A stretch of 50,673 nt of DNA from a virus (taxonomy: Duplodnaviria; Caudoviricetes). Of the stretch, positions 2,230 through 49,109 are shown piece by piece. A program made the translations under genes and the position numbers. The stretch's first letter is position 1. Each line of letters opens with the position of its first letter. Under the pieces are notes generated by a model. That model saw nothing but the letters and a program-made list of their open reading frames with translations, did no database searches and was not told where the DNA came from. The DNA lies in IMG/VR virus record IMGVR_UViG_3300031645_000001, positions 1 through 50,673 of that record; one strand, 5' to 3'.

Positions 2230-2254
2230 AGTTCGTTCGATTTTCAAATGATCT
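2230..2254. repeat. 25-bp dyad motif copy 1
   Basis: AGTTCGTTCGATTTTCAAATGATCT; overlaps terL TAG. Confidence 0.85.
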
Positions 2255-3794
2255 AAGCATATCTCCAATTTTCAATAGTTTTTTCATATTCTATGTCTCT
2301 ATACTCAGCTTCTATATCGTCTGGATTTTCAGCTGGTGAGAAGTAACGCTCACCAAGTTCAAGCATCTCGATTATGTAAGCTAAACCATCCATGATGTCC
2401 CATAGTGCAGAGCGAGGAAACATTAGAAGTTGTTGCTCAAGCCGCTTAACTGTAGCGCAGGAAGCATTATGGTAAATGTAGCCTCCACGGTAGTAAGGGA
2501 CAAGTTCCTTGACGCGAAGTTCTTTCTTCATTCCTCCACGTGCTTTGAGCCAAACGAGTTCATAGAACGTACCACGTCGAAACATCTCGTTTTTTATAGG
2601 TTGCTTGATAAATTCGTTAAGTGAAGTTTCTTCAATACCTATTACTTTTGCATCTAATCGTAGCGCCATAGCGAACATGTTGTCGTAGATTTCATCTGGA
2701 TAGAGTTTTTCTGAGATGATATCTCGGACGTAGAGTCGAGCACTTGCTAAGTCGATACCTATTCCAAGGATAGCAGTTTCAGCAGAGTGGATCTTTACAG
2801 TCTTTGCAGGGTCGACTATTATAACAGTTTCGATGGAAGTGTCAGCTTGTACAGTTGGCTCATCCACCTTGATATCTTCCTCACGCTGAGGTCTGTCAAG
2901 TGGTAAGTTGTAGTATTTAAAGTATTCAGTGCGAAATGCAGCGTCTTTAGATGAGATAGGTAAGTTACGATGTTCTTGGTAGAAGGTGTCAGTTTCACCT
3001 GCTTTAACAGCAGCATTCCACTTAGCAGCTATTACTTCATCAGGGACAAAGTGAGGTGCTACAGACTTTAAGTTGTCATCGCAAGATTCGAGCCGTATAG
3101 AATTCCAGTCTTCTGAGCTAAGTAAGTGTTGGAGTAGTGCGTCTTCATGTTTTAGAGTGTCTATGTAGACTATCTTCCAGTTCATGTGAAGTTGTGGTAC
3201 AGCTTCAATTACATCTGAGTAGAGCCAAGTTTTTAGTTCTTTGCGAATTTCTTCATTCATTACTTTTTTCTTGTCTTCAAGGTCGTCTATGACAATTAAT
3301 CCTGGGCGGTCATTTTTGAAGAGTACTCCACGCACTTGCTGGCCAGCTCCACGAGGTAAGATGAAAGTGTCATAAGCTACCCATGCCTTTTTGGAGAACT
3401 GTTCCTCAATCTCATCACGCCCAGCTGCGCGCGCTCGAATAGAGCCGAAGAAAGCTTTTATAGTTTTGTTGGTTAGAAGTTCACGCTTTAAGTTTTCAGT
3501 CTGCATGATAGCAGCTGTTTCTGATTTATTGATGTAGACTATGAAAGGACAGAGACGGAAGATTATGTAGCGAGCCATTAGAGCGAGGGCTACTATAGAA
3601 GTCTTGCCCCATCCACGAGGTGCAGCTATTACATCCTTGTTTGATTTGCTGTCAATTCGTGAGAAGATCTCTCCATGTACGTTTTCTGCAAAATCTGCCC
3701 AAAAGCGCTCAGGAAAGAAGGTTTTCGCAGTCAAGCGTGTGCTACTTTGGCAAGCAAAGAGTAAGTTATCTAATTGTTGATCTCGTTTAGACAT
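2253..3794 (-). CDS. terL: Terminase large subunit
   Basis: Walker A APRGWGKT, Walker B LIVIDDLE, RNase H-like nuclease IIVDPA...DIMDGLAY. Confidence 0.92.
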   Translation of the reverse strand: MSKRDQQLDNLLFACQSSTRLTAKTFFPERFWADFAENVHGEIFSRIDSKSNKDVIAAPRGWGKTSIVALALMARYIIFRLCPFIVYINKSETAAIMQTENLKRELLTNKTIKAFFGSIRARAAGRDEIEEQFSKKAWVAYDTFILPRGAGQQVRGVLFKNDRPGLIVIDDLEDKKKVMNEEIRKELKTWLYSDVIEAVPQLHMNWKIVYIDTLKHEDALLQHLLSSEDWNSIRLESCDDNLKSVAPHFVPDEVIAAKWNAAVKAGETDTFYQEHRNLPISSKDAAFRTEYFKYYNLPLDRPQREEDIKVDEPTVQADTSIETVIIVDPAKTVKIHSAETAILGIGIDLASARLYVRDIISEKLYPDEIYDNMFAMALRLDAKVIGIEETSLNEFIKQPIKNEMFRRGTFYELVWLKARGGMKKELRVKELVPYYRGGYIYHNASCATVKRLEQQLLMFPRSALWDIMDGLAYIIEMLELGERYFSPAENPDDIEAEYRDIEYEKTIENWRYA

Positions 3795-3819
3795 AGTTTG
3801 TTCGAATTCCGGGTGATCT
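3795..3819. repeat. 25-bp dyad motif copy 2
   Basis: AGTTTGTTCGAATTCCGGGTGATCT; fills the whole gap between the GT stop and the terL ATG. Confidence 0.85.
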
Positions 3820-4788
3820 TTAATCGTTCCAAGGTTTCTTAGTTATAAGGTCAAAATAGCTATATTTTTGTTTTTCTTTCAACCATCCGTATTCAGCAGT
3901 TCCAAGACGTACAGCTTCAGGCCAGTAGTCGTCTACATTTATATGATGGCGAACTTTGAAAGCTTTCTCTCCAGCTTTAGCGAGTTTGTAACCTTCATCA
4001 GGTCCAGCTATTACCATGTAAGATAGGAGCACTCCAAAGCCGTGAGGCTTGTTGCCATTAGCTGCATAGGTACGATATTTGTACTGGCCGAGTTTTACAA
4101 CAGCTGGAGTGTAAGGCCCTATGTGGATTACAGGGTCAGTAGCAATAGACCAATTAGTGTAGCCTAACATGAGGGATTTCACTTGTTGAATTACCTCAGC
4201 ACCTCCCCATGAGATCATATGGTCAGAGTGTGAGCCGTAGCCTTTGAGGGTGTTAAGGTACCACTCACGACGACAGATCCAAGGCATGAACTTCCAGTAC
4301 ATTTTACGCTCATTACGATAAGCGCAATCCCAACCACCGTTAGGTAAGTTAGTAGGGCTAACTTTTAATGTGTGTTTGATACCTGCAGGACCTTGATGAG
4401 CCCAGCGAATTGGAGGATGGCCGAAACCCAGCATTTCCTCATCAGCATGACGATCCATGAAGTCTACAGAGTCATGCAGGGTGTTATAGCCAAATAGAAC
4501 ATGAGAGTCTACACAGAAAATGTATTCACCAGTTGCAGCTTCAGCTGCCCGCATTCGAGCGCTGGTAAAGCAGGGTTCTTCCTGTCTTATTATTCTTACG
4601 TTGTGTTTCTTGATGAAGCCTACTGGACAGGCTATTCCGATGAGTTCATAGAACTTTGGATCAGAGTTGTCACAGACCACTATTTCACACTCGCCAGATA
4701 CACTTTTGAGCATTTCTATAGCGTTGTTGAGAGTTACGTTGAGCATGACGATATCGTTTCTATTGGAGATAATTATTGAAAGTTTCAT
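3820..4788 (-). CDS. GT-A fold glycosyltransferase (GT2/GT27-like; ppGalNAc-T-like motifs)
   Basis: LSIII...IVVCDN start; SARMRAAEAATGEYIFCVDSH (DxH); MISWGGAE; distal VIHI. Confidence 0.85.
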   Translation of the reverse strand: MKLSIIISNRNDIVMLNVTLNNAIEMLKSVSGECEIVVCDNSDPKFYELIGIACPVGFIKKHNVRIIRQEEPCFTSARMRAAEAATGEYIFCVDSHVLFGYNTLHDSVDFMDRHADEEMLGFGHPPIRWAHQGPAGIKHTLKVSPTNLPNGGWDCAYRNERKMYWKFMPWICRREWYLNTLKGYGSHSDHMISWGGAEVIQQVKSLMLGYTNWSIATDPVIHIGPYTPAVVKLGQYKYRTYAANGNKPHGFGVLLSYMVIAGPDEGYKLAKAGEKAFKVRHHINVDDYWPEAVRLGTAEYGWLKEKQKYSYFDLITKKPWND

Positions 4789-5450
4789 TTCACCTCCAAG
4801 AAGTATACAACTTTTTTCTGGTTAGCACGAATAGTGTAGAACTTTATAGTTAAGTTATAGTTAGGAAACATAGTTATTATTTTTCTGGTCATCTCATGAT
4901 GTGATTGCCAAGTCATACGGAAGTTAACTAGTCCATCTTTAGTGGTTTTAATCAAGCGCTCGTAGTGATCAGTTTGTTTGATTTTCAAATGATCTATTTC
5001 ACCTTCACCTGGACAGTTAATGTCGAAAGTGAGAGCTTTAGGTTTAGTTGATAAGACGTTATTGAGTATAGTTTCCTGATCTTTTGTGCGTAAGTGGATT
5101 AAGACAGCGCTGATTAGCACTCCAGACTGTGAGTGAGTTATAGGTTGAGTAAGTTCCCTGTGAAAAACTTGAAGTATATATTCTGGGAAACGTTCTATGA
5201 TGCGACTAGTCATTGATAGTGAAGAGTCGTAACCTATGTAATTAGGCTCTTCTCTGACTTCCTTTAAGTATTCAAGGAACCTGCCAAAGCCGCAACCTAG
5301 GTCGAGGAAGGACTCAGTGTTGCTGTGTAAGAATTCGAACATGTCAAGAGTGTACTGAGGACGTTTATGGCCCCAGGTATTTTCAGCTCGCTTAGATTCA
5401 CGCTCATTCCAGTCGTTAGTTTTTGCTTTTGCACTTGCTTGTGCTACCAT
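4785..5450 (-). CDS. Class I SAM-dependent methyltransferase (probably sugar/small molecule)
   Basis: FLDLGCGFGRF motif I, YIGYDSS motif II, VLIHL; no DNA-MTase NPPY/DPPY/PC motif. Confidence 0.85.
   Translation of the reverse strand: MVAQASAKAKTNDWNERESKRAENTWGHKRPQYTLDMFEFLHSNTESFLDLGCGFGRFLEYLKEVREEPNYIGYDSSLSMTSRIIERFPEYILQVFHRELTQPITHSQSGVLISAVLIHLRTKDQETILNNVLSTKPKALTFDINCPGEGEIDHLKIKQTDHYERLIKTTKDGLVNFRMTWQSHHEMTRKIITMFPNYNLTIKFYTIRANQKKVVYFLEVK
4971..4995. repeat. 25-bp dyad motif copy 3 (intragenic)
   Basis: AGTTTGTTTGATTTTCAAATGATCT; encodes DHLKIKQT. Confidence 0.75.
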
Positions 5451-6250
5451 TTATAGTTCTCCATAAACCATTTAAAAGTTTTCTTAATTCCTTTATCTAG
5501 AGGTGTTTTAGCTTTTATGTCAGTTGAGGTCTCTACGTTAATTATTTCTCCTTTTATATACCCATTGAACTTTACAGGTGGTGCGTAGTTAGTTAATTCT
5601 TCAGAAGTATTTTGGATTAGGTATGCTAGTTGTTTTATGGAAGTTGTTATTCCAGAAGCTACACACATAGAGACCTTATTGCTGGAATTTATTATAGTAC
5701 TTACTACATCGTCAATGTAGATGAAGTCACGAGTTTGCTCGCCGTCTCCGAAGATTGTGAGGGCTTTTTTGTCTAGTGCATTGCGAATAAAAGCAGAGAT
5801 GACAGATGTCTTGTGGAGTGAATGAGGTCCGTAGACATTGGAAAGGCGTAAGATTGTAGTGTTTACGTTGTAAGCTTTACGATAGGTAGTGCAAAGTGCT
5901 TCACAGGCTAGTTTAGATGCAGAGTAAGGAGATTGAAGTTCTGGAGCCCCCATAGAGGAAGTGAAAACTAATCGAGCATCACAAGTTCGACAGTAGTTGA
6001 GGGCATTTAAAGTGCTAGTGATGTTTTCTAAAAATGCTTTCTTTGGCTTAAGAAGGGATTTCCTAACGTCTGTGAATGAGGCGAGATGGATGAAGTTAGA
6101 GCAAGATTGTATGTGGATAGAGACTTTGCAAAGATCACAGCCTGTGAGTTTGTCTAGGATGACGAAGTCTTTGAAAGATCTAGAAAGTTTAATAGATAAG
6201 TTCTTACCTATGAAACCTAAGCCTCCTGATATTATGTAGTCAGCATTCAT
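5444..6250 (-). CDS. NAD-dependent nucleotide-sugar epimerase/dehydratase (extended SDR)
   Basis: ISGGLGFIG, FIHLA, FTSS, YSASK, RLSNVYGP, GDGEQTRDFIYIDD. Confidence 0.92.
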   Translation of the reverse strand: MNADYIISGGLGFIGKNLSIKLSRSFKDFVILDKLTGCDLCKVSIHIQSCSNFIHLASFTDVRKSLLKPKKAFLENITSTLNALNYCRTCDARLVFTSSMGAPELQSPYSASKLACEALCTTYRKAYNVNTTILRLSNVYGPHSLHKTSVISAFIRNALDKKALTIFGDGEQTRDFIYIDDVVSTIINSSNKVSMCVASGITTSIKQLAYLIQNTSEELTNYAPPVKFNGYIKGEIINVETSTDIKAKTPLDKGIKKTFKWFMENYKW

Positions 6251-6951
6251 ATAGTTTGCTCAATTGTAGTTCGTTCGAATTTCGGATCATCTTCCTGTTC
6301 GTCAAGTCCGAAGTTGTCAGACTCTAGATCTTGTATAGTGGTAGGTAGTGATTCCTGAGTTTCTTGAGTTTCTTGATTTTTCGTATGCTTTTGCTCTCCT
6401 TCCTTAGGCTCAACGTCTATAATCATCCCCGCTTCACGTGCAGCTTTTAGCCCTCGATCTTTGAATTCTTGCAGCTCAACCTTGGTTAAAGTGTAAGAAG
6501 CACTTGTAGATTGGATTTTTGTAGGAGCACGTAGGCCTGAGAGTTCTAACATTACAGTGTCTGCAACTTTCATCTTATCTTTAAGATTACACTCACCAGA
6601 CTCATCATCGAAGATTTCATGGTAAGTTTTAAGCGCTTTGTTGGTAAGCACACGGATCTTCTCATAAACTTTTTTAGCTTCCTCATCTCGACTAGCGCGA
6701 ATTTCTGAAAGCTTAAGCTCACCCAGTTCACTGTTAAGCGTGCTACTTACAGTATCAGGTGAGATGTTGAGAATGTCAGCGATTTCACAGTATTTAAATC
6801 CCCTCGCAGCGAGATTAACTATCTCATGACTCCGCTGCCAGAGAGACTTGATGTTGTAGGTCTTTTTCTTACCATCTGTCCTGCGCTTGTCTACTTCCCT
6901 AAACTCGAATCCGTAGAGACCATTGCGTGTCTGTACATTTTCCATAGTCAT
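6247..6951 (-). CDS. Probable terminase small subunit (HTH protein)
   Basis: HTH (GFKYCEIADILNISPDTVSSTL) then helical region; first gene of the operon containing terL. Confidence 0.6.
   Translation of the reverse strand: MTMENVQTRNGLYGFEFREVDKRRTDGKKKTYNIKSLWQRSHEIVNLAARGFKYCEIADILNISPDTVSSTLNSELGELKLSEIRASRDEEAKKVYEKIRVLTNKALKTYHEIFDDESGECNLKDKMKVADTVMLELSGLRAPTKIQSTSASYTLTKVELQEFKDRGLKAAREAGMIIDVEPKEGEQKHTKNQETQETQESLPTTIQDLESDNFGLDEQEDDPKFERTTIEQTI
6268..6292. repeat. 25-bp dyad motif copy 4 (intragenic)
   Basis: AGTTCGTTCGAATTTCGGATCATCT; encodes DDPKFERT. Confidence 0.85.
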
Positions 6952-6986
6952 TTTACACCTACTTTAGATAAATTTTTCATAATAGT

Positions 6987-7015
6987 ATCTTATCACATAA
7001 AGGTACTATTGTCAA
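6987..7015 (-). promoter_or_regulatory. Sigma70-type promoter for the leftward packaging/structural arm
   Basis: TTGACA-17 bp-TAAGAT with extended -10 TG. Confidence 0.65.
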
Positions 7016-7115
7016 GGTAATTTCCTGTGTATTTATTAACTTAGTAGACTTAGATCCAGCGTCGAGCGTGCGCTAGAGCACGAGTGCACTACTTACGCTT
7101 GACGCTTGACTACAT

Positions 7116-7140
7116 TGTTTGTCCAAAATTCGCACGAACT
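7116..7140. repeat. 25-bp dyad motif copy 5
   Basis: TGTTTGTCCAAAATTCGCACGAACT. Confidence 0.85.
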
Positions 7141-7152
7141 TTACAATCAATT

Positions 7153-7177
7153 AGTTTGTCCAAAAATCGCACATACT
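7153..7177. repeat. 25-bp dyad motif copy 6
   Basis: AGTTTGTCCAAAAATCGCACATACT. Confidence 0.8.
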
Positions 7178-7357: not shown

Positions 7358-7386
7358 TTGACAAACTATCAAAATTATGATTTAAT
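7358..7386 (+). promoter_or_regulatory. Sigma70-type early promoter
   Basis: TTGACA-17 bp-TTTAAT with extended -10 TG. Confidence 0.65.
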
Positions 7387-8184: not shown

Positions 8185-8209
8185 GGTTCGTTCGATAATC
8201 GTACGAACT
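8185..8209. repeat. 25-bp dyad motif copy 7
   Basis: GGTTCGTTCGATAATCGTACGAACT. Confidence 0.9.
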
Positions 8210-8232: not shown

Positions 8233-9027
8233 ATGAAAGAATTTGGTAAGAAGAAAAGAAAGAATGTTCCTAGAGATGGATATTTAGAGGATAGTACTAA
8301 AGGCAGTAGTCATATGAACCCAGTTAACTATAAAGGTGATGTACTTGTTCAAGTATGGATGGATAGTAGAGTGATAGCTACGCTGAGTAACTGGATAGAA
8401 AGTAAAGGCTTAAGGCCTAGGTTTATGAGTGAGGTGATTAGAGATCCTTTAATGATGCTGGTGGACTTAATAACTGAAAATGGTGAGGTTGAGTTAGTAG
8501 ATAATACAGCTATTGCTAGAGACTTATTGCAAGCTAAGTATAGAATTAATCTAAACCGAGGAGGGAGAGGTAAGAAGAATGCATTGCATAATAGTATATT
8601 GACTGGTAGAAGGGAACAGTTTGGTGCTAGGTTAACCAGTAGTAAAACTAAAGACATATACACACCTGCGACTAAGACTAAGAGTTATATAACTGATGAA
8701 GAGTGGGAACATTACGGTAAGATGAATGCTGAAGCTAAAGAGCAAGAAATGAAAGAAGGTATAGCTAATGCAGTAGCTAGTGGTAAAGCCTCTGAGTATG
8801 TTATGAAAGAAGTTGAGGTAGATAAAGTAATTGAAGCTGAGCCTAAGGTTGAATCTAAACCTGAGTATGTTAGTGTAACAAAGGATGAAGTTGTTATGAA
8901 GGAAGGTGAGCTAGATGAGTTAAGCGAGGAGGAATTTGTAGAGAAGCAGAGGAAGAAAGATGAAGCGAGGATAGCAGCTGAGAATGCACCTGTTGACATT
9001 AGTCAGATGAAATTGGCTAAGGAGTAA
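8233..9027 (+). CDS. Hypothetical protein, possible ribbon-helix-helix-like N-terminal region and acidic tail
   Basis: AGGAGG RBS; VLVQVWMDSRVIATL...MSEVIR pattern; motif copies on both sides. Confidence 0.75.
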   Translation: MKEFGKKKRKNVPRDGYLEDSTKGSSHMNPVNYKGDVLVQVWMDSRVIATLSNWIESKGLRPRFMSEVIRDPLMMLVDLITENGEVELVDNTAIARDLLQAKYRINLNRGGRGKKNALHNSILTGRREQFGARLTSSKTKDIYTPATKTKSYITDEEWEHYGKMNAEAKEQEMKEGIANAVASGKASEYVMKEVEVDKVIEAEPKVESKPEYVSVTKDEVVMKEGELDELSEEEFVEKQRKKDEARIAAENAPVDISQMKLAKE

Positions 9028-9035: not shown

Positions 9036-9060
9036 TGTTTGTACGGAAATCGAACGAACT
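9036..9060. repeat. 25-bp dyad motif copy 8
   Basis: TGTTTGTACGGAAATCGAACGAACT. Confidence 0.9.
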
Positions 9061-10089: not shown

Positions 10090-10278
10090 ATGATAAAGTC
10101 AATAATTAATGAGGAGGTTAATAGAAAGCATCTCATCTACCACTCACCTTTGCCACGTAAGAAGCAACGCACTACCATGAGAGCAGAAAGGTGTGGGAAG
10201 GTAGTAGTCTACAATGAGATGCAAGTAGCACTTTATAGGTGTAAATTAGTTTGTTCGAAAATCGGACAGACTGATTAG
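10090..10278 (+). CDS. Hypothetical protein
   Basis: AGGAG RBS, operon context. Confidence 0.55.
   Translation: MIKSIINEEVNRKHLIYHSPLPRKKQRTTMRAERCGKVVVYNEMQVALYRCKLVCSKIGQTD
10248..10272. repeat. 25-bp dyad motif copy 9
   Basis: AGTTTGTTCGAAAATCGGACAGACT. Confidence 0.85.
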
Positions 10279-12269: not shown

Positions 12270-12650
12270 ATGCCAGTAAAATTAAGTATAACAGCACAGG
12301 TTCCAGCGAATAAAGCTAAGAATACACCTCAGTTAGGTCCATGTACTGTGTCAGTAGACACAGGGAAAGATGCAAAAGAATCTATTGCCCTGTTCGGCGA
12401 TGAAGCGGTTAAAAGCAACTCCGACGCTAACTGGATAGTAACACTTCAGTCCAACATTAGAGCTGGCTTGAAGAAAGGTGAAACTCAGGATCAAATCCAA
12501 GCCCGCCTCGTCACTGCCAAAATGGGAATAGCTGCAAAAGGTGTCAAAGTTGACCCTGTCCAGGCTTACCTTGCACAGTTTGGTTCTGCTACACCAGAGA
12601 AGCAAAAAGAAATGCTCGCTGAACTTCAAAAGCGAGCAGCCAAGAAGTAA
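12270..12650 (+). CDS. Small basic protein, possibly DNA-binding
   Basis: AGGAGG RBS, own promoter and terminator, Lys/Ala rich. Confidence 0.85.
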   Translation: MPVKLSITAQVPANKAKNTPQLGPCTVSVDTGKDAKESIALFGDEAVKSNSDANWIVTLQSNIRAGLKKGETQDQIQARLVTAKMGIAAKGVKVDPVQAYLAQFGSATPEKQKEMLAELQKRAAKK

Positions 12651-12754: not shown

Positions 12755-12779
12755 AGTTCGTACGATAATCGAACAATCA
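12755..12779. repeat. 25-bp dyad motif copy 10
   Basis: AGTTCGTACGATAATCGAACAATCA. Confidence 0.9.
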
Positions 12780-12802: not shown

Positions 12803-13039
12803 ATGAAAGTAAGTTCAATAAGTGTATTTAATGAAGAAGGTGGTCCTCTGGCTCACATCAAAAATTTAGACAAAGAGGATACATGGCCTGTTACACTAAA
12901 TATCACTAATAATATAAAAGATTCTTATATTGGACCTTCAATAACCTTCTACATGACTATCCCTGAACTAATCCAGTTTAAAAATTCCTTCCTTGGATCT
13001 TTCAACAAAGTTATGAAAGAGGCTGACTATGACCGCTAA
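12803..13039 (+). CDS. Hypothetical protein
   Basis: AAGGAG RBS. Confidence 0.75.
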   Translation: MKVSSISVFNEEGGPLAHIKNLDKEDTWPVTLNITNNIKDSYIGPSITFYMTIPELIQFKNSFLGSFNKVMKEADYDR

Positions 13040-14666: not shown

Positions 14667-15035
14667 ATGAAAATAATCTACTGCTCTGTCTGTGGAACTC
14701 CTCTACCAGTAATCCGTAAGGCTGTAAAAGCCTATGGTAGAATAGTGGACATAATAGACCCTCATGAATGTGTAGATCCACCTGTACCTTTTGACTTAGA
14801 CCCACTCATCGTTCCTGAGTATACTGAGGAAACTGAGGAAAAAAGAAAGTTTGTACAAAATTTGGATAATCTAAGACCTTCAACAGTAAGCACCGCTGAC
14901 CTACGTGATAGAAGGAAGGAGCAAGATGTTAAATCATCTGCTCCATCTTCTCTCGTCGACAGCATTAAAGACCTAATGCCCAGCAGTCCAGAACATGAGC
15001 TTACTAACGGCAATTTTGAAGGGAATGAGTTATGA
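14667..15035 (+). CDS. Hypothetical zinc-binding protein
   Basis: CSVCG...HEC; GGAGG RBS. Confidence 0.75.
   Translation: MKIIYCSVCGTPLPVIRKAVKAYGRIVDIIDPHECVDPPVPFDLDPLIVPEYTEETEEKRKFVQNLDNLRPSTVSTADLRDRRKEQDVKSSAPSSLVDSIKDLMPSSPEHELTNGNFEGNEL
14848..14872. repeat. 25-bp dyad motif copy 11 (intragenic)
   Basis: AGTTTGTACAAAATTTGGATAATCT. Confidence 0.7.
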
Positions 15036-15825: not shown

Positions 15826-16827
15826 ATGCTAATCCCCTACCACCCTACGTGGGACATAAAAGATTCATCTAAACTAGACACCTCCATCGAGTGTCTACGG
15901 CAATACTTCTTTCGTTACCTTCTCGGCTGGCGTCCTGATTATCCTGAACATGACCTTTACTTCGGTCAAGCTTGGCATCTCGCTCGTGAATACCAACTAC
16001 TAAACGGCTACCAAGATTTCCAAGGCGCTTATCAAGTATTTGAAGAATACTACCGCAAGGAATTTCCACCTGAAGGCGACGAACTCTACAAACCTAAAAC
16101 TCCAACAGGTGTACTAAACGCTCTGATGGAATTTGAAGCTCAATACTCTCGTGACTTAACTGACAATGAAGTAGTTGAAATAGACGGTGTTAAGATGACT
16201 GAAATTTCAGGCACTGTACCTATTGACGAAAATCGTACAATCTGCTATCGAATGGACTCTGTAATGAGGAGATTGGAAGATGGCAAGATCTTCTCCTGGG
16301 ATCATAAAACTACTCACGAAAAGTATCTATTAGGTCGACAGTGGTCTGAGAACTTTCACTTAAGTTTCCAGAATGGTACTTACACTCACTGCCTTTACTG
16401 TATGTTTCCTATTGAGCAAGTCTTAGGCATCGAATTCTGTGGTGTAGGTTTTACGTTCCTAAAGCGTGGATCTAAGAATCGTCCAGCAGGCTACCATGCT
16501 TCACTACGTAGAGTCCCTGCCTTTAAAACTCCTGAGCAAATGAATACTTGGCTCTGGACTATTAACAATCAGATGGATATACTAGACCGTGAGATGGATC
16601 GTCTCTCACATTGTAAGGAAGGTGACAGCGTCTTAATGGCGTTCCCTATGAACCCTAAGGCTTGCACAAACTATCGAGGCTGTCCCTTCCACGACTATTG
16701 CCTAGCATGGCAAAATCCACTACAACATTGCTACGAACCACCTATTGGTTTTAGAATTGAGTTCTGGAATCCAATGGAGCAGGATACTAGAAATAGAAAA
16801 GACCTTGAATGGAAAGGAGATAATTAA
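15826..16827 (+). CDS. PD-(D/E)XK exonuclease (Cas4/AddB/RecB-like)
   Basis: YRMD...WDHKT, Q..Y motif, C-terminal C..YRGCPFHDYC. Confidence 0.85.
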   Translation: MLIPYHPTWDIKDSSKLDTSIECLRQYFFRYLLGWRPDYPEHDLYFGQAWHLAREYQLLNGYQDFQGAYQVFEEYYRKEFPPEGDELYKPKTPTGVLNALMEFEAQYSRDLTDNEVVEIDGVKMTEISGTVPIDENRTICYRMDSVMRRLEDGKIFSWDHKTTHEKYLLGRQWSENFHLSFQNGTYTHCLYCMFPIEQVLGIEFCGVGFTFLKRGSKNRPAGYHASLRRVPAFKTPEQMNTWLWTINNQMDILDREMDRLSHCKEGDSVLMAFPMNPKACTNYRGCPFHDYCLAWQNPLQHCYEPPIGFRIEFWNPMEQDTRNRKDLEWKGDN

Positions 16828-18663: not shown

Positions 18664-19080
18664 ATGTCATTAGTTGACTACAGCGATTTAGAAAGAGACA
18701 TTGACGATGCACCTGAGCCCAAGGTTCTTAACAGAGGAGCAAAAGTAAACGCTCGCATCATCTTTGTAAATGAAGGGATCTCAGACAAGAATGGAGCTCA
18801 GTGGTACATGCCTACCTTTGATGTACCTGATGATTCTATGGTAGTTGAGTTCAACGATTTCTTCTGGGATCTCTCAGAGCAAAACAAGGTTGACCCAAAG
18901 CAGTTCCAACGTAACCTTTATCGATTCAAGAATTTTGCAGAAGCTTTCGACATTGACTATTCCCGTCCTTTCTCATGGACTGATGACCTTCTAGGTAAGG
19001 AAGGTTGGGTAATCCTTGGGACTAAAAAAGACGACTATGGTGAGAAGAATTCTGTCTCGAAGTATGTCTCTGGAAAGTAA
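18664..19080 (+). CDS. ssb: Single-stranded DNA-binding protein (DUF669-like OB fold); -1 frame extension to 19121 ends in DDEIPF
   Basis: Follows the Sak4-like ATPase; beta-rich; acidic IPF tail encoded in the -1 frame just after the stop. Confidence 0.75.
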   Translation: MSLVDYSDLERDIDDAPEPKVLNRGAKVNARIIFVNEGISDKNGAQWYMPTFDVPDDSMVVEFNDFFWDLSEQNKVDPKQFQRNLYRFKNFAEAFDIDYSRPFSWTDDLLGKEGWVILGTKKDDYGEKNSVSKYVSGK

Positions 19081-19132: not shown

Positions 19133-19157
19133 TGATTGTACGAAATTCGTACAAACT
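19133..19157. repeat. 25-bp dyad motif copy 12
   Basis: TGATTGTACGAAATTCGTACAAACT. Confidence 0.9.
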
Positions 19158-19209: not shown

Positions 19210-19234
19210 AGTCCATCCAATAATCGAACGAACT
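19210..19234. repeat. 25-bp dyad motif copy 13
   Basis: AGTCCATCCAATAATCGAACGAACT. Confidence 0.8.
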
Positions 19235-19297: not shown

Positions 19298-19531
19298 GTG
19301 GAATCTGAGATATCTATATTAAGTCAGTCATGTAATGAGCTTATTGATACAATATCAACACTGGAAGATAGGTTAACTAATATACTAAACTCAGAACTTC
19401 CATGCAAAGCTGAGGCGGATAAAGATGAGAAAGAAAGAGTCCCACTTGCAAATGCAATAAGAAGTGAGTCAGATAAGATAGTATACACAGTTCATAAATT
19501 GGCAACTTTAATTAACAGAATAGAACTGTAA
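19298..19531 (+). CDS. Hypothetical coiled-coil protein
   Basis: Frame is open back to ATA 19253, which follows an AGGGGA RBS. Confidence 0.6.
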   Translation: MESEISILSQSCNELIDTISTLEDRLTNILNSELPCKAEADKDEKERVPLANAIRSESDKIVYTVHKLATLINRIEL

Positions 19532-20537: not shown

Positions 20538-21724
20538 AAATCTTAGTACTTGGCTCAGACGGTTACATCGGCTATCCACTCACTCAACACTTACTCAAAG
20601 AAGGTCATCAAGTAATAGGACTCGACAACTACTCAAGACGTGGGAGAGTAAGTTATCTTGGAAGTAATTCACTAACTCCTATAAAAGAACCTGATATTAG
20701 AACAAAATACCTAAACACTCTTGGAGAGTACTTAGGAACTATTCAACATACTTTAAATGAGCATAGTATAGATGGACTTAAAAATGCTATCAGGAAATTT
20801 TCTCCATCTAATAACTCAATAGATGCTATAGTTCATCTTGCTGAGCAACCTTCAGCACCTTGGTCTATGTTTAATGCTCAACAAGCTGTAATAACCCAGC
20901 GTGAAAACGTTTTAGGAACACTAAACCTTCTCTGGATAATGAAAGAAATCTGTCCAGAAGCTCACTTAGTTAAATTAGGAACTATGGGAGAGTATGGAAC
21001 ACCTACTTGTGATATTCCTGAGGGAGTTATACCTGAGGATTGCATAGGAAACATTCAAGACGAATATCATGGATCTGTAGCAGAATGTCCTATGTCCGGA
21101 CTCCTCTTCCCTCGCACACCTGGTTCCTTCTACCACCTAACCAAAGTACACGATACTTACAACATCCACTTTGCTTGTCGTAACTGGGGATTACATTCCA
21201 CTGACATTATGCAAGGTGTCTTATTTGGACTTGAGTCTGGAACTCGCTTCGACTACGACGAATACTTTGGCACAGCTATTAATCGCTTCTGTGTTCAGGC
21301 TATAATAGGTATGCCACTTACTGTCTATGGTTTAGGTCAGCAAACTCGTGGATTTCTACCTCTAAAAGATTCTATCCAGTGTTTAACAATAGCGTTAGAA
21401 AACCCACCTGAACTTGGTGAGTATAGAACACTTAACCAATTCGAGAATATTTACTCTATTAATCACTTAGCTGATATGGTATGTAGAGGTGCTAAACAAC
21501 TAGGAATCCATGCTTCTATTTCTCACATTTCTAATCCACGTAAGGAAGCTGAAAGTCATTACTACAATCCAGATCATCAGAAGCTATTTGATCTAGGTTA
21601 CATACCTACTACTAATATCCAAGGTGAGATAAATAACTTACTTGAAACTATCTTACCTTACAAAGATCGAGTAATTAAAGATGTAATAATGCCTAAAACA
21701 AACTGGAGGTTAACTAATGGCTAA
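20534..21724 (+). CDS. sqdB: UDP-sulfoquinovose synthase (SqdB/SQD1/Agl3 family)
   Basis: GSDGYIG, SLTPI, HLAEQPSAPWSM, HLVKLGTMGEYGTP, PGSFYHLTKVHD, RFDYD..FGTAINRF, NPRKEAESHYY. Confidence 0.92.
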   Translation: MKILVLGSDGYIGYPLTQHLLKEGHQVIGLDNYSRRGRVSYLGSNSLTPIKEPDIRTKYLNTLGEYLGTIQHTLNEHSIDGLKNAIRKFSPSNNSIDAIVHLAEQPSAPWSMFNAQQAVITQRENVLGTLNLLWIMKEICPEAHLVKLGTMGEYGTPTCDIPEGVIPEDCIGNIQDEYHGSVAECPMSGLLFPRTPGSFYHLTKVHDTYNIHFACRNWGLHSTDIMQGVLFGLESGTRFDYDEYFGTAINRFCVQAIIGMPLTVYGLGQQTRGFLPLKDSIQCLTIALENPPELGEYRTLNQFENIYSINHLADMVCRGAKQLGIHASISHISNPRKEAESHYYNPDHQKLFDLGYIPTTNIQGEINNLLETILPYKDRVIKDVIMPKTNWRLTNG

Positions 21725-21962
21725 TGAAAACTACAAGCCGCGCTTCTCATTTGAGGTAAGTGAGGAACAAAAGCAGCGTGCTGATAAAGTACTTTCTACC
21801 TACGGCTTACGCAAAGCTATCTTTGGTCAAATCTTAGACGATGTCTGTGACTTGATCGAAGAGTATGGTGGAGTAGCTATTGGAGTAATAATGAGTGGCA
21901 AGATAAAACCTAGAGACGTAATTCCATCTATGAAGCGAGCAGAGGAGGTGGGCAAAAAATGA
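21717..21962 (+). CDS. Small protein, possibly ribbon-helix-helix DNA-binding
   Basis: PRFSFEVSEEQKQR strand-helix pattern. Confidence 0.65.
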   Translation: MANENYKPRFSFEVSEEQKQRADKVLSTYGLRKAIFGQILDDVCDLIEEYGGVAIGVIMSGKIKPRDVIPSMKRAEEVGKK

Positions 21963-23636: not shown

Positions 23637-23658
23637 TCGTTCAATAATCGAACAAACT
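23634..23658. repeat. 25-bp dyad motif copy 14
   Basis: TGATCGTTCAATAATCGAACAAACT; starts at the TGA stop and ends just before the polA RBS. Confidence 0.9.
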
Positions 23659-34857: not shown

Positions 34858-34882
34858 ATATCGTTCGATAATCGAACAAACT
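34858..34882. repeat. 25-bp dyad motif copy 19
   Basis: ATATCGTTCGATAATCGAACAAACT; overlaps TAG. Confidence 0.85.
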
Positions 34883-35768
34883 AAAAGAAAGAAGCTGCTA
34901 ATCCTAGCACTCCACCTATAACAGCTCCAGCAGGATTACCTCCACTTACCATATAACCAGCTGATGCACCAGACATAGCACCTCCAAGTGCCTTTGAAGC
35001 TTGACTAGGTTCATTTTGAGATGTAGTAGCTGCAGATCCTGCCCCTGCCATAGCACTAATTATACCTCTAACATTTTCAAATAAGTTAATATCCCACATA
35101 GCGTCTTTAGCTCTATATTCAAGATTTGCTCTATCAAGATCTAACCTACTTGCATAGTATAACTGATACATGTCAGAATAGACCTTAATAACACTGGTGT
35201 TCCACTCTAAATGTTTAGCAAACTGTTCATTAGATATACTAAGTGCGTGAAGTCTAATTTGTGAAGCAAACTTATTAATAGACTTAACATAAGCATCTTG
35301 AATAATAGCCTTTCCCATTACAAAAGTCGTTGATTGCACTGAGTTAATATCTCTCATACCAGCTAGAAACTTAGGCAAAACAACTGTGTCTATATCATCT
35401 TGTAACAGTGCAGCCTGTGCAGATATAGCATTTTGGATCTCAGCTCCATCAATTACATCTGTATATATCTGACCCCATAAAGCATGGAGATCCAGTCCAG
35501 CCATGAACTTACCAAACATATCCCAGAGAGATGGAAAGTCAACTAACCCATAATCAACTCCAAATAACTCTGATGGTATATCTACTGAAGCATAGTCTCC
35601 ATAAGGCGATAGTCCAAGAGTAGCATTGAAGATGTCTGTAAAACTTGATGTAGGTTCATCGGCTTCTTCATGATTTAAGTACTGTTCATGCATTGTCTCT
35701 AAGTAAGGAGCATAACGTACAGTAGTTTCTGTATCACCACCTCCACTACTTCCACCACCACTACTCAT
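34881..35768 (-). CDS. Probable ejection protein with C-terminal glycine zipper
   Basis: MSSGGGSSGGG start; ALGGAMSGASAG...AVIGGVLGLAASFF. Confidence 0.65.
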   Translation of the reverse strand: MSSGGGSSGGGDTETTVRYAPYLETMHEQYLNHEEADEPTSSFTDIFNATLGLSPYGDYASVDIPSELFGVDYGLVDFPSLWDMFGKFMAGLDLHALWGQIYTDVIDGAEIQNAISAQAALLQDDIDTVVLPKFLAGMRDINSVQSTTFVMGKAIIQDAYVKSINKFASQIRLHALSISNEQFAKHLEWNTSVIKVYSDMYQLYYASRLDLDRANLEYRAKDAMWDINLFENVRGIISAMAGAGSAATTSQNEPSQASKALGGAMSGASAGYMVSGGNPAGAVIGGVLGLAASFF

Positions 35769-37856: not shown

Positions 37857-37881
37857 AGTTTGTTCGAAAATCGGTTGATCT
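37857..37881. repeat. 25-bp dyad motif copy 20
   Basis: AGTTTGTTCGAAAATCGGTTGATCT; overlaps TAG. Confidence 0.9.
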
Positions 37882-38647
37882 AAAAATCCATTGGCCAGAT
37901 TTGAGGCTCTAAAGTATAAGGTACAAGTTCTTTATCAACATGTAGTGGTTTAACATAGTTATAACGAGTTAATTTGTTAACATATGTATCAATAGGGCCA
38001 GGAGCTATATCTCCGCCAGTACCAACAGAGAAAAAATCAAAGTCTGTTCCATCATCATCTATTCTTGGAGTATGCTGTCCTGGACCTATCCAGCCTCCAC
38101 CACCTATATCACCATCTACAATATCTATATCCCAAGCAACTGGTTCAGAAGATCCATCACTCCAAGCTTTTAATTTTAAACTGTTGCCTATAACTCTAAA
38201 TCTCATCCAAATCCAAGTATTCTCTATAAAACCAAAGAATGTACTACTAAGCACAGCTTGAGCTCCACCAGAAAGTTCTTTAGATATTCTTATTCTATTA
38301 TTGCGATTATCTGCAGTGCAACAATAGTATTCATAATTTGCTCCTAATGCTCCTGAAGCCCTAACAAACATCTCACAAGTTTCTTCATCAAAACCATTTT
38401 TAGTTCTCATCTTTCCTAAAACTTCTACATCAGCTGGTGTACCTACATCATCCCAAGAGATAAGATAAGACCTAGGATTAAATCCATTATAACATTGAAG
38501 GAAAAGTAACTGTCCACCCAAATCTCCACCAACTTGTATAAACCCTTGATGAGATCCAGCCCAAAGCCTTTCAGTCCAGTTTAATCCAGATGCTTGAGGA
38601 AAGACACAAACTGCACAATCTGTAAAATATGTTCTAAAAGTAGCCAT
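37880..38647 (-). CDS. ConA/lectin-like beta-sandwich virion protein
   Basis: WIWMRFRVIGNSLKLKAW...EP..W; homologous to the core of 49109..50617. Confidence 0.65.
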   Translation of the reverse strand: MATFRTYFTDCAVCVFPQASGLNWTERLWAGSHQGFIQVGGDLGGQLLFLQCYNGFNPRSYLISWDDVGTPADVEVLGKMRTKNGFDEETCEMFVRASGALGANYEYYCCTADNRNNRIRISKELSGGAQAVLSSTFFGFIENTWIWMRFRVIGNSLKLKAWSDGSSEPVAWDIDIVDGDIGGGGWIGPGQHTPRIDDDGTDFDFFSVGTGGDIAPGPIDTYVNKLTRYNYVKPLHVDKELVPYTLEPQIWPMDF

Positions 38648-40422: not shown

Positions 40423-40447
40423 TGTTTGTACAAATTTCGGACGAACT
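40423..40447. repeat. 25-bp dyad motif copy 21
   Basis: TGTTTGTACAAATTTCGGACGAACT; overlaps TAG. Confidence 0.9.
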
Positions 40448-41162
40448 AACCATCCATCTGATCAACTTCAGCAATTAGTTCCTCAACAAGATCCATTCCA
40501 AGTTGCGTCATTTCAGTTGTAATAGCATTAGTCCAGTCATTTACACCTTGTGTACTGCGATTGATTACCTCTATCTGACGCATAGTAGACATGTAAAGTA
40601 GCATAGGGTGACTATCAGACCATTTGTTAGAATCTGTGTCTAACACTAACAGTGGAGAATAGAATAAGCCACTAATTATTAAAGTTATATCAGTACTTGT
40701 AGGAACATTTATTAAAATAGCATTATAGTCATTTCCAGCTACTTCTACATATCCCATGAATTCTTCAAAGCTATCTAACGTTTCATTTGGAGGAACAGAT
40801 CTAGTAATACATGGAGAGTAGTAAAGTGGTACACCAGCTTCCATTTCAGCTGGAAGTGTTGATAAGTAGCCTTCCATTAGATCTTGAAGATTCTTTTTAG
40901 TTAACTGCCAACGGCCTTCAGTTGATGATGCAGCCCAGACTTCCTTAATAGCTCTGCAGTAAGGTAAGGTTGTATAGATATTACCAGTAGTCAATCGACT
41001 AAACTTAACAGCCCATGATTTTTGAGTTTCATCTAATCGATCAAGGAATTTAGATCCAGCATCTATAAAGTGCCCTAATCCATCATCTGAGTAGTCATCT
41101 TTGACTAAGTCAAAGCGCCCTGAAAGTTTTCTAAACATTTTTCTGAACTGTAGTAAGTTCAT
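40446..41162 (-). CDS. Head-tail adaptor (tail tubular protein A-like)
   Basis: MNLLQFR start, PLYY, P.LL.Y motifs; directly after the capsid gene. Confidence 0.65.
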   Translation of the reverse strand: MNLLQFRKMFRKLSGRFDLVKDDYSDDGLGHFIDAGSKFLDRLDETQKSWAVKFSRLTTGNIYTTLPYCRAIKEVWAASSTEGRWQLTKKNLQDLMEGYLSTLPAEMEAGVPLYYSPCITRSVPPNETLDSFEEFMGYVEVAGNDYNAILINVPTSTDITLIISGLFYSPLLVLDTDSNKWSDSHPMLLYMSTMRQIEVINRSTQGVNDWTNAITTEMTQLGMDLVEELIAEVDQMDG

Positions 41163-42557: not shown

Positions 42558-42582
42558 AGTTCGAACGATTTTTAAACGAACT
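42558..42582. repeat. 25-bp dyad motif copy 22
   Basis: AGTTCGAACGATTTTTAAACGAACT; upstream of the capsid RBS. Confidence 0.85.
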
Positions 42583-46442: not shown

Positions 46443-46467
46443 AGTTCGTCCGGAATTCGTACAATAT
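46443..46467. repeat. 25-bp dyad motif copy 23
   Basis: AGTTCGTCCGGAATTCGTACAATAT; overlaps TAA. Confidence 0.8.
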
Positions 46468-46787
46468 TATGGAGCTGCAGTTGTAGGTACCATAGTTGTA
46501 CAGTTTAAAGCTAGTGGATTGTTTACTATAAAGCTACACCATTGGCCAGTTAATCGTACTCCAGGATCAAATACTATACCTTGATATAGCCACTCACCAA
46601 CTTGATCAAGCTCACCTAGTGTGATGTCGTAGTATATACAGTTATCGTCTGTAGCACATAATATAGCAGCCCAGCACCCAGTCGTCCCATCAGGCTTCCT
46701 ATATCTAATCTGTAATGTATCGTAACCTGATAAGTCTAAATTTGTACAATAAGTTAATCTTGGAGTATCATTAACAAAGGTTTCCAT
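46467..46787 (-). CDS. BppU-N-like Ig-fold virion protein with short PTT tail
   Basis: DLSG...KPDG...W.A...LDQVGEW.YQ; ends TTMVPTTAAP. Confidence 0.65.
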   Translation of the reverse strand: METFVNDTPRLTYCTNLDLSGYDTLQIRYRKPDGTTGCWAAILCATDDNCIYYDITLGELDQVGEWLYQGIVFDPGVRLTGQWCSFIVNNPLALNCTTMVPTTAAP

Positions 46788-47970: not shown

Positions 47971-49058
47971 GAACTTACCTCAACACCTATTTCCGCACCT
48001 GTTATATCAGCTTCCGCCCACGCTGCCGAATCGTCAGGATTAACCTGGTATACCTTCGCAAAAGTTTCATAATCAGTACTTGGGTCTACTTCGTCACTTT
48101 TATAATAAGTTCCGTTAGACCGGGTAAGAATCTTGGCTCCCTTAGCTCCAGCATCAGTTTTATTAATACAGATACAAAATTTAACTCCATAAATAGTGCC
48201 ACCTGAAGCCAATGACGGTAATGCATATGAATCTTGATGATCAACCGTATCGCTTGAATTATAAGTAGAATCGTCGTCAGGGGTAACATCATCTACATTT
48301 TCATAGTTGCTGCCAACGGAAGGGGTGAAATCTGCATCTGCACCTGCCCCATTTGGCCTGAGCACATCACATCGACAGTCACCAAGGAAATCGTTTTGAG
48401 GGGCATCACCTGCATTATCCATAATCCAGATGCAATCAAATGAAGTATCTAAATCATTATGGACTCCACCGAATTGAAACTGTCTTGCATAGACGTTTGC
48501 GCCTTCAAGAGTGTCTTGACCTGACAAATCTAATATCTGAGTGCCATCTAATTTGACTTCTACAGTTCCAGCACTGGCATGAATTAGAAGTTTCACTTCA
48601 AGATAATGCCATTTATAATCTTGAAGTGTTGCACCGGAGCTCGTTCCAAGCAAAGTTGTATTGCGATATGCTTTTAAATTATCACTTGAATCCCAACATA
48701 AATTCAGGTGATTATTTCCAGCTCCATCAGATATTCTAATAAATGGATATGAAGCACTTTCTGATGGAGCATCAGCGTTGTCTTTATAAAAAACAACTCC
48801 AACGATTACCGTAGCGGGTGATAATGTATTTACTAAGGTATATTTGAAATAAGCAGAAGTTCCATAATCTGTATTTGGTAATCTTAGTCCTATATTAGGA
48901 GATCCAAATCTACTATAGGCAGTACTAAAACCACCCTGAGGCAAATACCACTGAGTATTTTGAGATTCAACTGTTTCTGTGGAAACAGCATTAAAATCCG
49001 CAGAAGTACCATTATCATCTGCATAACTTCTAAAACCATCAAAGTGTAGTAAAGTCAT
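47967..49058 (-). CDS. LamG/ConA-like virion protein
   Basis: WHYLEVK...GTVEVKLDG...FDCIWI...FLGD pattern. Confidence 0.65.
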   Translation of the reverse strand: MTLLHFDGFRSYADDNGTSADFNAVSTETVESQNTQWYLPQGGFSTAYSRFGSPNIGLRLPNTDYGTSAYFKYTLVNTLSPATVIVGVVFYKDNADAPSESASYPFIRISDGAGNNHLNLCWDSSDNLKAYRNTTLLGTSSGATLQDYKWHYLEVKLLIHASAGTVEVKLDGTQILDLSGQDTLEGANVYARQFQFGGVHNDLDTSFDCIWIMDNAGDAPQNDFLGDCRCDVLRPNGAGADADFTPSVGSNYENVDDVTPDDDSTYNSSDTVDHQDSYALPSLASGGTIYGVKFCICINKTDAGAKGAKILTRSNGTYYKSDEVDPSTDYETFAKVYQVNPDDSAAWAEADITGAEIGVEVSS

Positions 49059-49084
49059 TATTTACCTATATATTAACAATATTA

Positions 49085-49109
49085 AGTTTGTCCGAATTTT
49101 GTACGTTCT
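49085..49109. repeat. 25-bp dyad motif copy 24
   Basis: AGTTTGTCCGAATTTTGTACGTTCT; overlaps TAA. Confidence 0.8.

Follow-up and report, generated by a model that had tools for sequence, protein, structure and literature searches.

Genome-wide 25-bp dyads of an uncultured tailed phage as probable parS-like sites of its own ParB-methyltransferase

The DNA analyzed here, referred to as the window, is the complete IMG/VR virus record IMGVR_UViG_3300031645_000001 (Duplodnaviria; Caudoviricetes), which is 50,673 bp long and has terminal repeats. It contains 24 copies of a 25-bp dyad that are distributed around the genome. Judging from sequence statistics and structural models, we consider it probable that these dyads are parS-like docking or loading sites on double-stranded DNA (dsDNA) for a protein encoded by the phage itself. 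This proposed dyad binder is the 437-aa ParB-methyltransferase of open reading frame (ORF) 22323..23636 (+ strand), which combines a ParB/Noc-like N-terminal NTP-binding domain, a helix-turn-helix (HTH), and a beta-class N6-adenine DNA methyltransferase. The predicted recognition helix of this protein covaries with the dyad sequence in two sets of related loci.

An original prediction, made from the letters of the window alone, had listed 24 copies of the dyad and a weaker one at position 16219. A search of the window with its IUPAC consensus at three or fewer mismatches returned exactly the 24 listed starts and nothing extra, compared to a mean of 0.03 and a largest count of 1 in 100 dinucleotide shuffles. 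Five sites matched the consensus exactly. A weight matrix scored every site at 25 bits or more in its better orientation and the next-best place in the window at 10.7 bits, values that are circular because the matrix was built from the same 24 sites it scores. The weaker copy (16219..16243) was not upheld and is left uncounted: only its right half-site is good, it scores below 10 bits, and it appears, as the sole extra (25th) match, only at five mismatches. Each site is composed of two 11-bp half-sites and a 3-bp A/T spacer (11+3+11). The largest circular gap between dyads is 4,424 bp, in agreement with the predicted limit of about 4.4 kb. The consensus was recognized as no host regulator box. 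Scanning 185,579 species genomes with the exact pattern yielded 61 single scattered matches and no clustered ones, the rough chance estimate being approximately 140.

Relative to ORFs of at least 60 aa, 16 of the 24 sites lie between ORFs and eight lie inside one. Using crude ORF calls, 14 of 24 window sites were intergenic, compared to 4.9% expected. Eight sites (2230, 3795, 23634, 34858, 37857, 40423, 46443, and 49085) overlap or abut the stop codon of an upstream ORF of at least 60 aa, where nine had been counted before, and 10 of the 24 end 0 to 26 bp ahead of the next listed start. When the window sites were oriented by gene direction, the 3' half (TCGNACRAACT) was far better kept than the 5' half (AGWTYRTNCRA), the center was A-rich, and the upstream flank held no conserved sequence. 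The claim that one half is good and the other degenerate therefore stands for the window; as a feature of the family it falls, since the asymmetry is absent in three of six complete genomes.

A search with the capsid protein identified 75 related IMG/VR loci. Most of these have a dyad upstream of the capsid gene, as in the window, with a lineage-specific sequence and retained symmetry. Five complete relatives (G001 to G005, the window being G000) each contain 15 to 21 copies of their own version of an 11+3+11 dyad, so that the motif check proposed in the original prediction was answered positively; all six complete genomes have 15 to 24 dyads each. The half-sites are AGwTyGTnCGA in the window, AGTynnATTTA in G001, AGAyyGTTTAA in G002, AGwTyGTTTAw in G003, AGATyGTTyAA in G004, and AGTTyGAwCnA in G005. 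Of 132 sources 4 kb or longer, 82 yielded two or more such dyads in an automatic search; two of the families look spurious. GenBank holds a single near relative, Desulfofustis phage LS06-2018-MD01 (capsid protein 49% identical), which has nine copies with rCTwwGTCCCA. Deeper relatives share the dyad geometry and differ in arms and ends: L145 carries eight copies of a CCTwTGGTGAT half-site, and L143/L144 have GCAAT arms.

The proposed check for regular spacing was also positive, as the dyads were more evenly spaced than random in all six complete genomes (probability of a largest gap at most as observed, 0.002 to 0.057; probability for the coefficient of variation, 0.003 to 0.033). Intergenic enrichment was similar in the five relatives (p of 4e-7 to 1e-13). 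Orientation bias varied. The dyad center is 74% A on the sense strand in the window (p = 0.0008), the bias is present in G005 (p = 0.04) and weak in G001, and none was detected in G002, G003, and G004. It is lineage-specific and therefore no part of a common mechanism. About 20 sites per genome have changed in concert, which calls for a partner that acts in trans and has changed along with the sites.

Several lines of evidence describe the product of 22323..23636. Pfam matched ParB_N above the cut-off (E value of 4.7e-7) and N6_N4_Mtase at residues 231 to 427 (E value of 1.3e-15). Compared with solved structures, the family profile matched Noc (7ng0/7nfu) over residues 7 to 197 with an E value of 5e-9, as well as ParB and Spo0J chains, and it matched beta-class N4/N6 methyltransferases over residues 204 to 433. 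The best sequence matches include an N4-cytosine enzyme with SPPY where the window protein has DPPY, a motif that is taken as adenine-specific. In the AlphaFold model (pLDDT of 82), helices 136-143 and 148-163 form the HTH. Foldseek returned CcrM, M.BceJIV, M1.HpyAVI, MboIIA, and RsrI with E values of 1e-14 to 1e-11 and Noc 7nfu_B over 204 columns with an E value of 1.9e-8. Invariant in 26 sequences are G59, R61, R62, E92, E95, N96, and R99 in the N-domain pocket (Box II arginines and Box III ENxxR, named as for the ParB-CTPase fold in the relevant passages of PMC12704722), together with D236-P-P-Y239 and F399/G401/S402/G403 in the methyltransferase, where DPPY stands before the FxGxG S-adenosylmethionine-binding motif. 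Residues ~144 to 160 are the most variable stretch of this otherwise conserved protein and sort with dyad type. Using the N-terminal 205 aa as the query, tblastn gave a full-length match only in the Desulfofustis phage; three cyanophage records matched in the N-domain only.

There is no canonical ParB C-terminal dimerization domain; the N6_N4 methyltransferase takes its place. In a homodimer model the methyltransferase domains pair through residues 295 to 359 and 387, with a score of 0.65 compared to 0.00 for the best of three controls. Contact agreement between runs was at least 70% and the partner pLDDT at least 73. Of 30 proteins solved as pairs, 20 attained the mark applied to this score, compared to 1 of 23 solved as single chains. 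Related beta-class methyltransferases have been solved as dimers, and the pass may for that reason reflect likeness only.

The covariation of protein and dyad was evaluated by comparing distances in 12-residue segments of the protein with distances between dyad half-sites. De novo dyad typing was unsuccessful for 5 of 34 sources of a full-length protein (L109, L120, L137, L146, and L151). These five were excluded along with L136, whose contig is that of G005, and 28 sources were kept, 25 of them nonredundant. The first set comprised 18 nonredundant proteins of the AG...CT clade. Segment 148-159 gave a Spearman r of 0.75, whereas the 424 segments had a mean of 0.135 (standard deviation [SD], 0.186) and the whole protein reached 0.37. 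The 14 best segments all fell within residues 137 to 163. For residues 146 to 159, the Mantel p was 0.0004 and the partial r given whole-protein distance was 0.69 to 0.70. Nine other proteins from the same loci served as controls, resulting in about 2,500 segments in ten proteins overall. Their best segments reached r values of 0.62 for Sak4, 0.60 for PolA, 0.59 for the ligase, 0.51 for the nuclease, 0.44 for the 126-aa protein 12270..12650, and 0.31 for a ribbon-helix-helix (RHH)-like protein.

A second set was obtained by an alignment search, which supplied 80 further loci. Full-length proteins were present in 76, and 46 of these were less than 97% identical to the earlier proteins and to each other. 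The 39 fresh loci with three or more de novo dyads were used, and the seven with fewer than three were dropped. The 12 best of 424 segments were in residues 135 to 158 (top r of 0.514; mean, 0.142; SD, 0.125), and segment 148-159, named in advance, gave an r of 0.395 with a Mantel p of 0.0005. The original prediction had placed ORF 22323..23636 first among the candidate binders, a choice supported by its domain composition and by the covariation of its recognition helix with the dyad in both sets.

Individual helix classes correspond to individual half-sites. SKxxVS goes with GTTTAA, including two deep clades (L142 and L150/L151), and SPSVVVD goes with GTnCGA. Further pairs are SQPAVVE with GAwCnA, SQPQVTQ with nnATTTA, and DHSTLSK with GGTGAT, and loci with the SREKLRQ helix share GCAAT arms. 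For locus L109, the helix pointed to window-like dyads, and these were then found; likewise, a majority-type dyad was predicted and confirmed for L117, L118, L120, and L112. One class was new in the second set, in which T[DN]ASVS accompanied rATTAAA half-sites in 10 loci.

A number of observations weigh against the dyads being sites of the ParB-methyltransferase. Sequence statistics and models supply all of the evidence, and shared descent confounds the covariation: when the clades were pooled, the helix came top with an r of 0.857, but whole-protein distance already gave 0.82, and the pooled result adds little. Most dyad types other than the majority type are single lineages. A control protein of 97 aa reached an r of 0.70, with only 12 sequences. 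In the second set, the peak was lower (0.51) and shifted N-terminally toward helix 2 and the turn, and locus L160 is an exception to the code, combining an SP-type helix with a majority-type dyad. In the HTH itself the profile aligns poorly with Noc, and Pfam HTH_ParB was detected below threshold and only in the Desulfofustis ortholog (E value of 0.04). A 25-bp site is longer than chromosomal ParB sites are known to be. The strict location of sites in the gap from a stop codon to the following ribosome-binding site, and the orientation bias of the window, would also fit a gene expression element. Finally, two distant, cultured phages with the same fusion have only four or five dyads of other geometry. 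In these, Microcystis phage Mel-JY34 (L155) and Vibrio phage vB_VspS_VS-ABTNL-3 (L157), the gene for the ParB_N-N6_N4 methyltransferase adjoins that for DNA polymerase. Mel-JY34 has five copies of GYGYAWTTC-N9-GAAWTRCRC at three or fewer mismatches (0.46 expected), and VS-ABTNL-3 has four exact copies of CAATCG-N6-CGATTG; both patterns were derived from the same data and are leads only. In Caulobacter phage Kuura, the dyad search gave nothing above shuffles, and scanning two of its ORFs revealed a UDG-superfamily protein and a DUF3987 protein, not the fusion.

The gene content of the window was assessed from 48 ORFs scanned against Pfam and/or PHROGs, with small ORFs only partly included. Among these ORFs there were no integrase, immunity repressor, or lysogeny genes, no RNA polymerase, sigma factor, or transposase, and neither a match to a ParA-like protein nor a ParA, KorA, or TrbA partner.

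Four other explanations together hold about a third of the probability. The first, which we regard as unlikely, is that the dyads are operators of another dimeric phage regulator (8233..9027, 21717..21962, or 6247..6951) and act as boundary roadblocks or as repressor or activator sites. Such a role would suit sites that follow the stop codon of one gene and precede the ribosome-binding site of the next in the same direction (16 of 24 are between ORFs), the two sites beside sigma-70-type promoters in the divergent early control region, and a better half that points with transcription at most window sites. Within the 8233..9027 family, moreover, lineages have exchanged the N-terminal domain. The candidates themselves, however, were rejected. 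The TerS-like protein 6247..6951, whose homolog in the Desulfofustis phage is annotated as small terminase and adjoins TerL, has an almost invariant HTH, with the same recognition helix in G001, G002, and G005 despite different dyads. In the RHH-like 81-aa protein 21717..21962, the beta-strand is invariant, the best segment has the r of 0.31 given above, and no homolog was found in G005. The two N-terminal families of the early protein 8233..9027 do not sort with dyad type and split G002 from G003/G004, even though a single dyad type is common to these three genomes. The 126-aa protein 12270..12650 was set aside on account of its best segment. Whole-protein identity matrices of 24 core families grouped G002/G003/G004 only by tail-module genes, and no regulator stood out. 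Operators of this kind are also difficult to reconcile with the absent orientation bias in G002, G003, and G004, with eight sites inside ORFs and one at the convergent end of the + block with no gene after it, and with the lack of an integrase or immunity repressor among the ORFs scanned.

We give little credence to the dyads being phage-specific middle or late promoters or start-associated elements, with very short leaders and a leaderless TerL message. Sigma-70-like matches (-35/-10 hexamers, 16 to 18 bp) were fewer than expected in the late region, with 35 compared to 60.7 ± 7.0 from 20 to 40 kb and 22 compared to 29.0 ± 5.4 from 40 to 50.7 kb. The motif ends shortly before 10 of the 24 listed starts, the TerL ATG abuts a dyad without a Shine-Dalgarno sequence in three genomes, and the center of some sites resembles a -10 hexamer by eye. 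Ordinary sigma-70 promoters showed no overall enrichment, and promoter-like matches overlap only a few dyads (7116, 8185, 23634, 34858, and 46443). Intrinsic terminators showed no enrichment over shuffles either, with one of 24 sites (34858) picked up, and both were therefore rejected as the function of the dyads. Retention of symmetry through sequence change would be unexpected for a promoter, and some sites are intragenic, one is antisense (14848), and one marks the convergent terminus (28012). Three of six genomes do not keep the orientation, a Shine-Dalgarno sequence directly after several sites leaves no space for a downstream -10 box, and RNA polymerase and sigma factors were absent among the ORFs scanned.

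Self-spreading or gene-converting palindromic repeats (REP-like or recombination linkers), with no dedicated binder and a consensus kept by concerted evolution, seem very improbable to us. Copies are indeed alike within a genome and different between genomes, and sites border variable gene cassettes. For Cluster O phages, the relevant passages of PMC4351075 attribute two insertion/deletion differences, as a proposal, to recombination between repeats, and Sak4-type annealing and PD-(D/E)XK nuclease functions are encoded by the phages studied here. Such repeats would, however, leave unexplained why the ParB HTH is the best dyad tracker among ~2,500 segments in ten proteins, why spacing is even, and why sites remain at the same boundaries between genes when their sequence changes. 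The ORFs scanned also included no transposase.

The original prediction favored a dimeric protein on dsDNA over an RNA hairpin and stated that many substitutions break self-pairing, both of which the arm-pair counts bear out. Among 1,056 arm pairs in 96 oriented sites from six genomes, 794 were Watson-Crick pairs and 126 were plain mismatches, and wobble was restricted to the antisense strand in 83 and present on the sense strand in 53. At arm positions 4 to 6 of G001, which vary freely, pair 5/21 was complementary in 2 of 15 sites and pair 6/20 in 5 of 15; in the window, pair 3/23 was mismatched in 16 of 22 sites. Sense RNAs of 10 of the 24 sites had folding energies of 0 to -10.2 kcal/mol; two did not fold, and only one had a z score below -2 compared to shuffles (-3.0). 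No T-run follows the dyads, and comparing the window with Rfam at gathering thresholds gave nothing. A look for RNA sequencing runs covering positions 6001-16000 of the window listed none. RNA or single-stranded DNA hairpins acting as terminators, RNase processing sites, or translational operators, to which the location of dyads in transcribed intergenic spacers and the complementarity of ~85% of arm positions in G002 and G004 could point, are hardly credible given freely varying arms without compensatory pairing, weak folds, and the missing T-run.

If the dyads are sites of the ParB-methyltransferase, one HTH of a dimer would be placed on each 11-bp half-site, and the dimer would be held together by the methyltransferase domain at the position of the canonical ParB C-terminal dimerization domain. 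A dimer held C-terminally, with two HTHs and two ParB N-domains, would have the layout of a ParB clamp. More speculatively, NTP binding at the N-domain may close the dimer to a clamp that leaves the dyad and slides. About 20 sites approximately 2 kb apart could then let the methyltransferase reach the whole genome fast, and a possible use would be to shield newly made phage DNA against restriction by the host. The protein may instead act on nearby gene expression in a KorB-like manner. We propose clamp closure, sliding, and spread of methylation because of the conserved pocket, the even spacing, and the behavior described for KorB, VirB, and BisD in the passages drawn on. The full model, in which the ParB fold is an enzyme delivery clamp, some 20 sites load a sliding dimer, the whole genome is methylated in cis, and the phage marks itself through a private site code, is offered tentatively, as possible but doubtful.

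The window is organized in two gene blocks. The leftward block runs from 6951 round the circle to 28035 and encodes the TerS-like protein, TerL, portal, capsid, and a 1,877-aa internal virion protein with a transglycosylase domain. The rightward block (7458-28069) contains early genes and genes for ligase, nuclease, Sak4, dCMP deaminase, the ParB-methyltransferase, UDG-PolA, ThyX, and a DUF3987 primase-helicase. No tRNA genes were found in the window.

The dyads, listed here without strand, are distributed over both blocks. In the leftward block, 2230..2254 overlaps the stop of the TerL gene (2253..3794, - strand), and 3795..3819 is the entire 25-bp spacer from the stop of 3820..4788 to the TerL ATG, with no Shine-Dalgarno sequence. 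The TerL start codon abuts a dyad in the same way, also with no Shine-Dalgarno sequence, in the window (3794-3819), in G002 (L091) near 46151, and in G003 (L093) near 32890, which suggests that initiation of the large terminase is leaderless or otherwise unusual. The next two sites are 4971..4995, within ORF 4785..5450, and 6268..6292, at the 3' end of the TerS-like gene 6247..6951, 17 bp ahead of the next start. Three lie within the gene for the 1,877-aa internal virion protein (31191..31215, 31680..31704, and 31710..31734, the last being 5 bp from the 31680 site). The five sense-oriented intragenic dyads (4971, 6268, 31191, 31680, and 31710) are in one common frame relative to the motif and encode similar peptides, D-x-P-K-I/F-E-R/Q-T. 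Stop codons are overlapped by 34858..34882 (ORF 34881..35768; next start 15 bp on), 37857..37881 (37880..38647), 40423..40447 (40446..41162), 46443..46467 (46467..46787), and 49085..49109 (49109..50617). The site at 42558..42582 is 23 bp ahead of the major capsid gene, and most relatives have a dyad at the equivalent place.

Between the blocks, the divergent early control region contains 7116..7140 and, 12 bp past it, 7153..7177. In the rightward block, 8185..8209 has the ATG of 8233..9027 23 bp downstream and 9036..9060 lies 8 bp past the stop of the same ORF. These are followed by 10248..10272 in the 3' end of ORF 10090..10278, by 12755..12779, from which ORF 12803..13039 begins 23 bp on, and by 14848..14872 within ORF 14667..15035, where the better half opposes gene direction. 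Site 19133..19157 is downstream of ORF 18664..19080, and ORF 19298..19531 begins 63 bp after 19210..19234. Site 23634..23658 overlaps the TGA of the ParB-methyltransferase gene itself, with the PolA start 14 bp on, and 28012..28036 marks the convergence point of the two gene blocks in the 3' end of 26813..28069.

Several other features were observed in the window. The divergent control region (6952-7860) has consensus -35 sigma-70-type promoters both ways, e.g., TTGACA-17-TAAGAT leftward at 7015-6987, and a clean intrinsic terminator near 7830-7862 closes the earliest of the early genes (7458-7799), whose 113-aa product had no family match. These promoters and this terminator indicate that the host uses ordinary sigma-70 signals. 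Just upstream of dyad 8185, (TA)n and TATAGAGA-like units make up an AT-rich tract at 7900-8140 with the arms of a ~20-bp inverted repeat on either side (around 7980-8000 and 8117-8140); a role as replication origin or packaging site is possible. The early protein 8233-9027 and its counterparts in G001 to G005 share a common C-terminal end, and an unrelated domain takes the place of the N-terminal ~130 residues in G003 and G004. Both N-terminal versions look like RHH by eye, and neither had a Pfam or PHROG match. The C-terminal half (residues ~85 to 180) of the 14118-14666 product is kept in all six genomes, with matches to uncharacterized PHROGs only, and contains a motif that we take to be typical of HIRAN domains. 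Regions 19902-28069 and 3820-6250 encode dCMP deaminase, ThyX, two NAD-dependent epimerases, a GT2 glycosyltransferase, and a second methyltransferase, and a UDG-superfamily domain is fused to the PolA N terminus. This gene set hints at modified DNA or sugar chemistry. The 9-mer GTAGTAGGT has 12 occurrences on the + strand, and genes 46771-47970 and 49109-50617 contain 11 of these as well as all eight occurrences of GTAGGTGCT. On the - strand they correspond to repeated Pro/Thr-rich coding units, which probably represent fiber or linker repeats.

Among known systems, the one described here is akin to the multi-site ParB-family proteins (KorB/OB and Noc/NBS) and departs from them in its C-terminal domain and in having no ParA partner among the ORFs scanned. 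The original comparison with parS/Noc-type loading sites is strengthened by the Noc match of residues 7 to 197 and by the covariation of HTH and dyad. As in Noc-NBS and ParB-parS, the sites are palindromic, the reader (here a proposed one) is an HTH, and the pocket arginines and ENxxR are invariant; Noc is the best solved relative, and many sites scattered over a replicon are the Noc pattern. Unlike for Noc and ParB, no membrane-targeting or ParA-binding part was identified in the window protein. The window half-sites also differ from Noc/ParB sites, being 11 bp long with a 3-bp A/T spacer, and the fused enzyme is new to the comparison. KorB of plasmid RK2 has several palindromic OB sites over the replicon and shows CTP-dependent clamp loading and sliding with action at a distance, according to the relevant passages of PMC11790492. 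It shares with the window protein the ParB family, a mobile element as its carrier, palindromic sites throughout the replicon, and the same core of N-terminal domain plus HTH. In contrast to KorB, the window protein belongs to a lytic-looking phage and not a plasmid, a methyltransferase replaces the canonical C-terminal dimerization domain, and there are 15 to 24 evenly spaced 25-bp sites per 50 kb; clamp behavior and regulation are here only predicted. A ParB-like clamp with a different dimerization module is described for the plasmid protein HerB (PMC13370423, in the passages drawn on).

In form, the repeats of Cluster O mycobacteriophages (Corndog and its kin) are the closest known system. 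As the relevant passages of PMC4351075 describe, these genomes have more than 30 copies each of the 17-bp 5'-TGTTCGGNNNCCGAACA, whose arms are separated by 3 bp of A/T-rich sequence; some copies are intergenic and others fall within genes, and the phages are not obviously temperate. A dimeric binding protein was proposed, a role in transcription initiation was held unlikely, and the function was given as unknown; the phages also encode the 502-aa ParB-like gp90 (PMC4351075). With Corndog-type gp90, Pfam matched ParB_N (E value of 2.7e-6) and no methyltransferase domain. The many inverted repeats, the 3-bp A/T-rich spacer, and the ParB-like protein in a phage that does not look temperate are common to both, which is a likeness of form only. 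Unlike the window dyads, the Cluster O motif is shorter and invariant, gp90 is without a methyltransferase domain, and a link between gp90 and the repeats is hypothetical. The comparison with the stoperators of phage L5 fits less well. Cluster A stoperators are about two dozen asymmetric repressor sites spread genome-wide, largely in short intergenic gaps, and bound by a monomer (PMC9283540, in the passages drawn on), and they are contrasted with the Cluster O repeats in the discussion of PMC4351075. Site number, genome-wide spread, and a mostly short-intergenic location are shared with the window array. In contrast to stoperators, which are asymmetric, oriented with transcription, and found in temperate phages, the window sites are symmetric dyads whose orientation bias is lineage-specific and absent in three relatives, and no integrase, repressor, or lysogeny genes were seen among the scanned ORFs.

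Fusions of the ParB-CTPase fold to N6_N4 methyltransferases are reported to be frequent in phages, where they rank among the commonest ParB architectures, with a role given as unknown, "perhaps in anti-defense" (PMC12704722, relevant passages). A phage ParB homolog with no obvious DNA-binding domain activates a DNA-modifying thymine dioxygenase on double-stranded DNA according to the relevant passages of PMC13229309; unlike that homolog, the window protein has an HTH. The passages drawn on from these two papers name no cognate DNA sites or arrays, either for the fusions (PMC12704722) or for the dioxygenase-associated ParB (PMC13229309). In the literature searched, no paper was found that links a phage ParB-methyltransferase with a site array.

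The dyads represent the first candidate DNA targets for the ParB-methyltransferases, a widespread and unexplained class of phage proteins. The 25-bp target, its 15 to 24 copies per genome, and a helix-to-site code that varies between lineages make specificity swaps straightforward, and the dyads can be used as gene boundary markers for annotation in a large family of uncultured phages. If the proposal is true, the logic of ParB and parS would serve, beyond segregation and gene silencing, to target and perhaps also to spread a DNA-modifying enzyme on the genome of a lytic phage, and it would provide a candidate explanation for genome-wide dyad repeats such as those of Cluster O mycobacteriophages. 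Should the more tentative idea of self-marking also hold, the fast change of site and helix would be an identity code that denies the benefit to co-infecting related phages and to the host, and the same logic might account for the Cluster O dyad repeats and for many of the ParB-methyltransferase fusions in phages.

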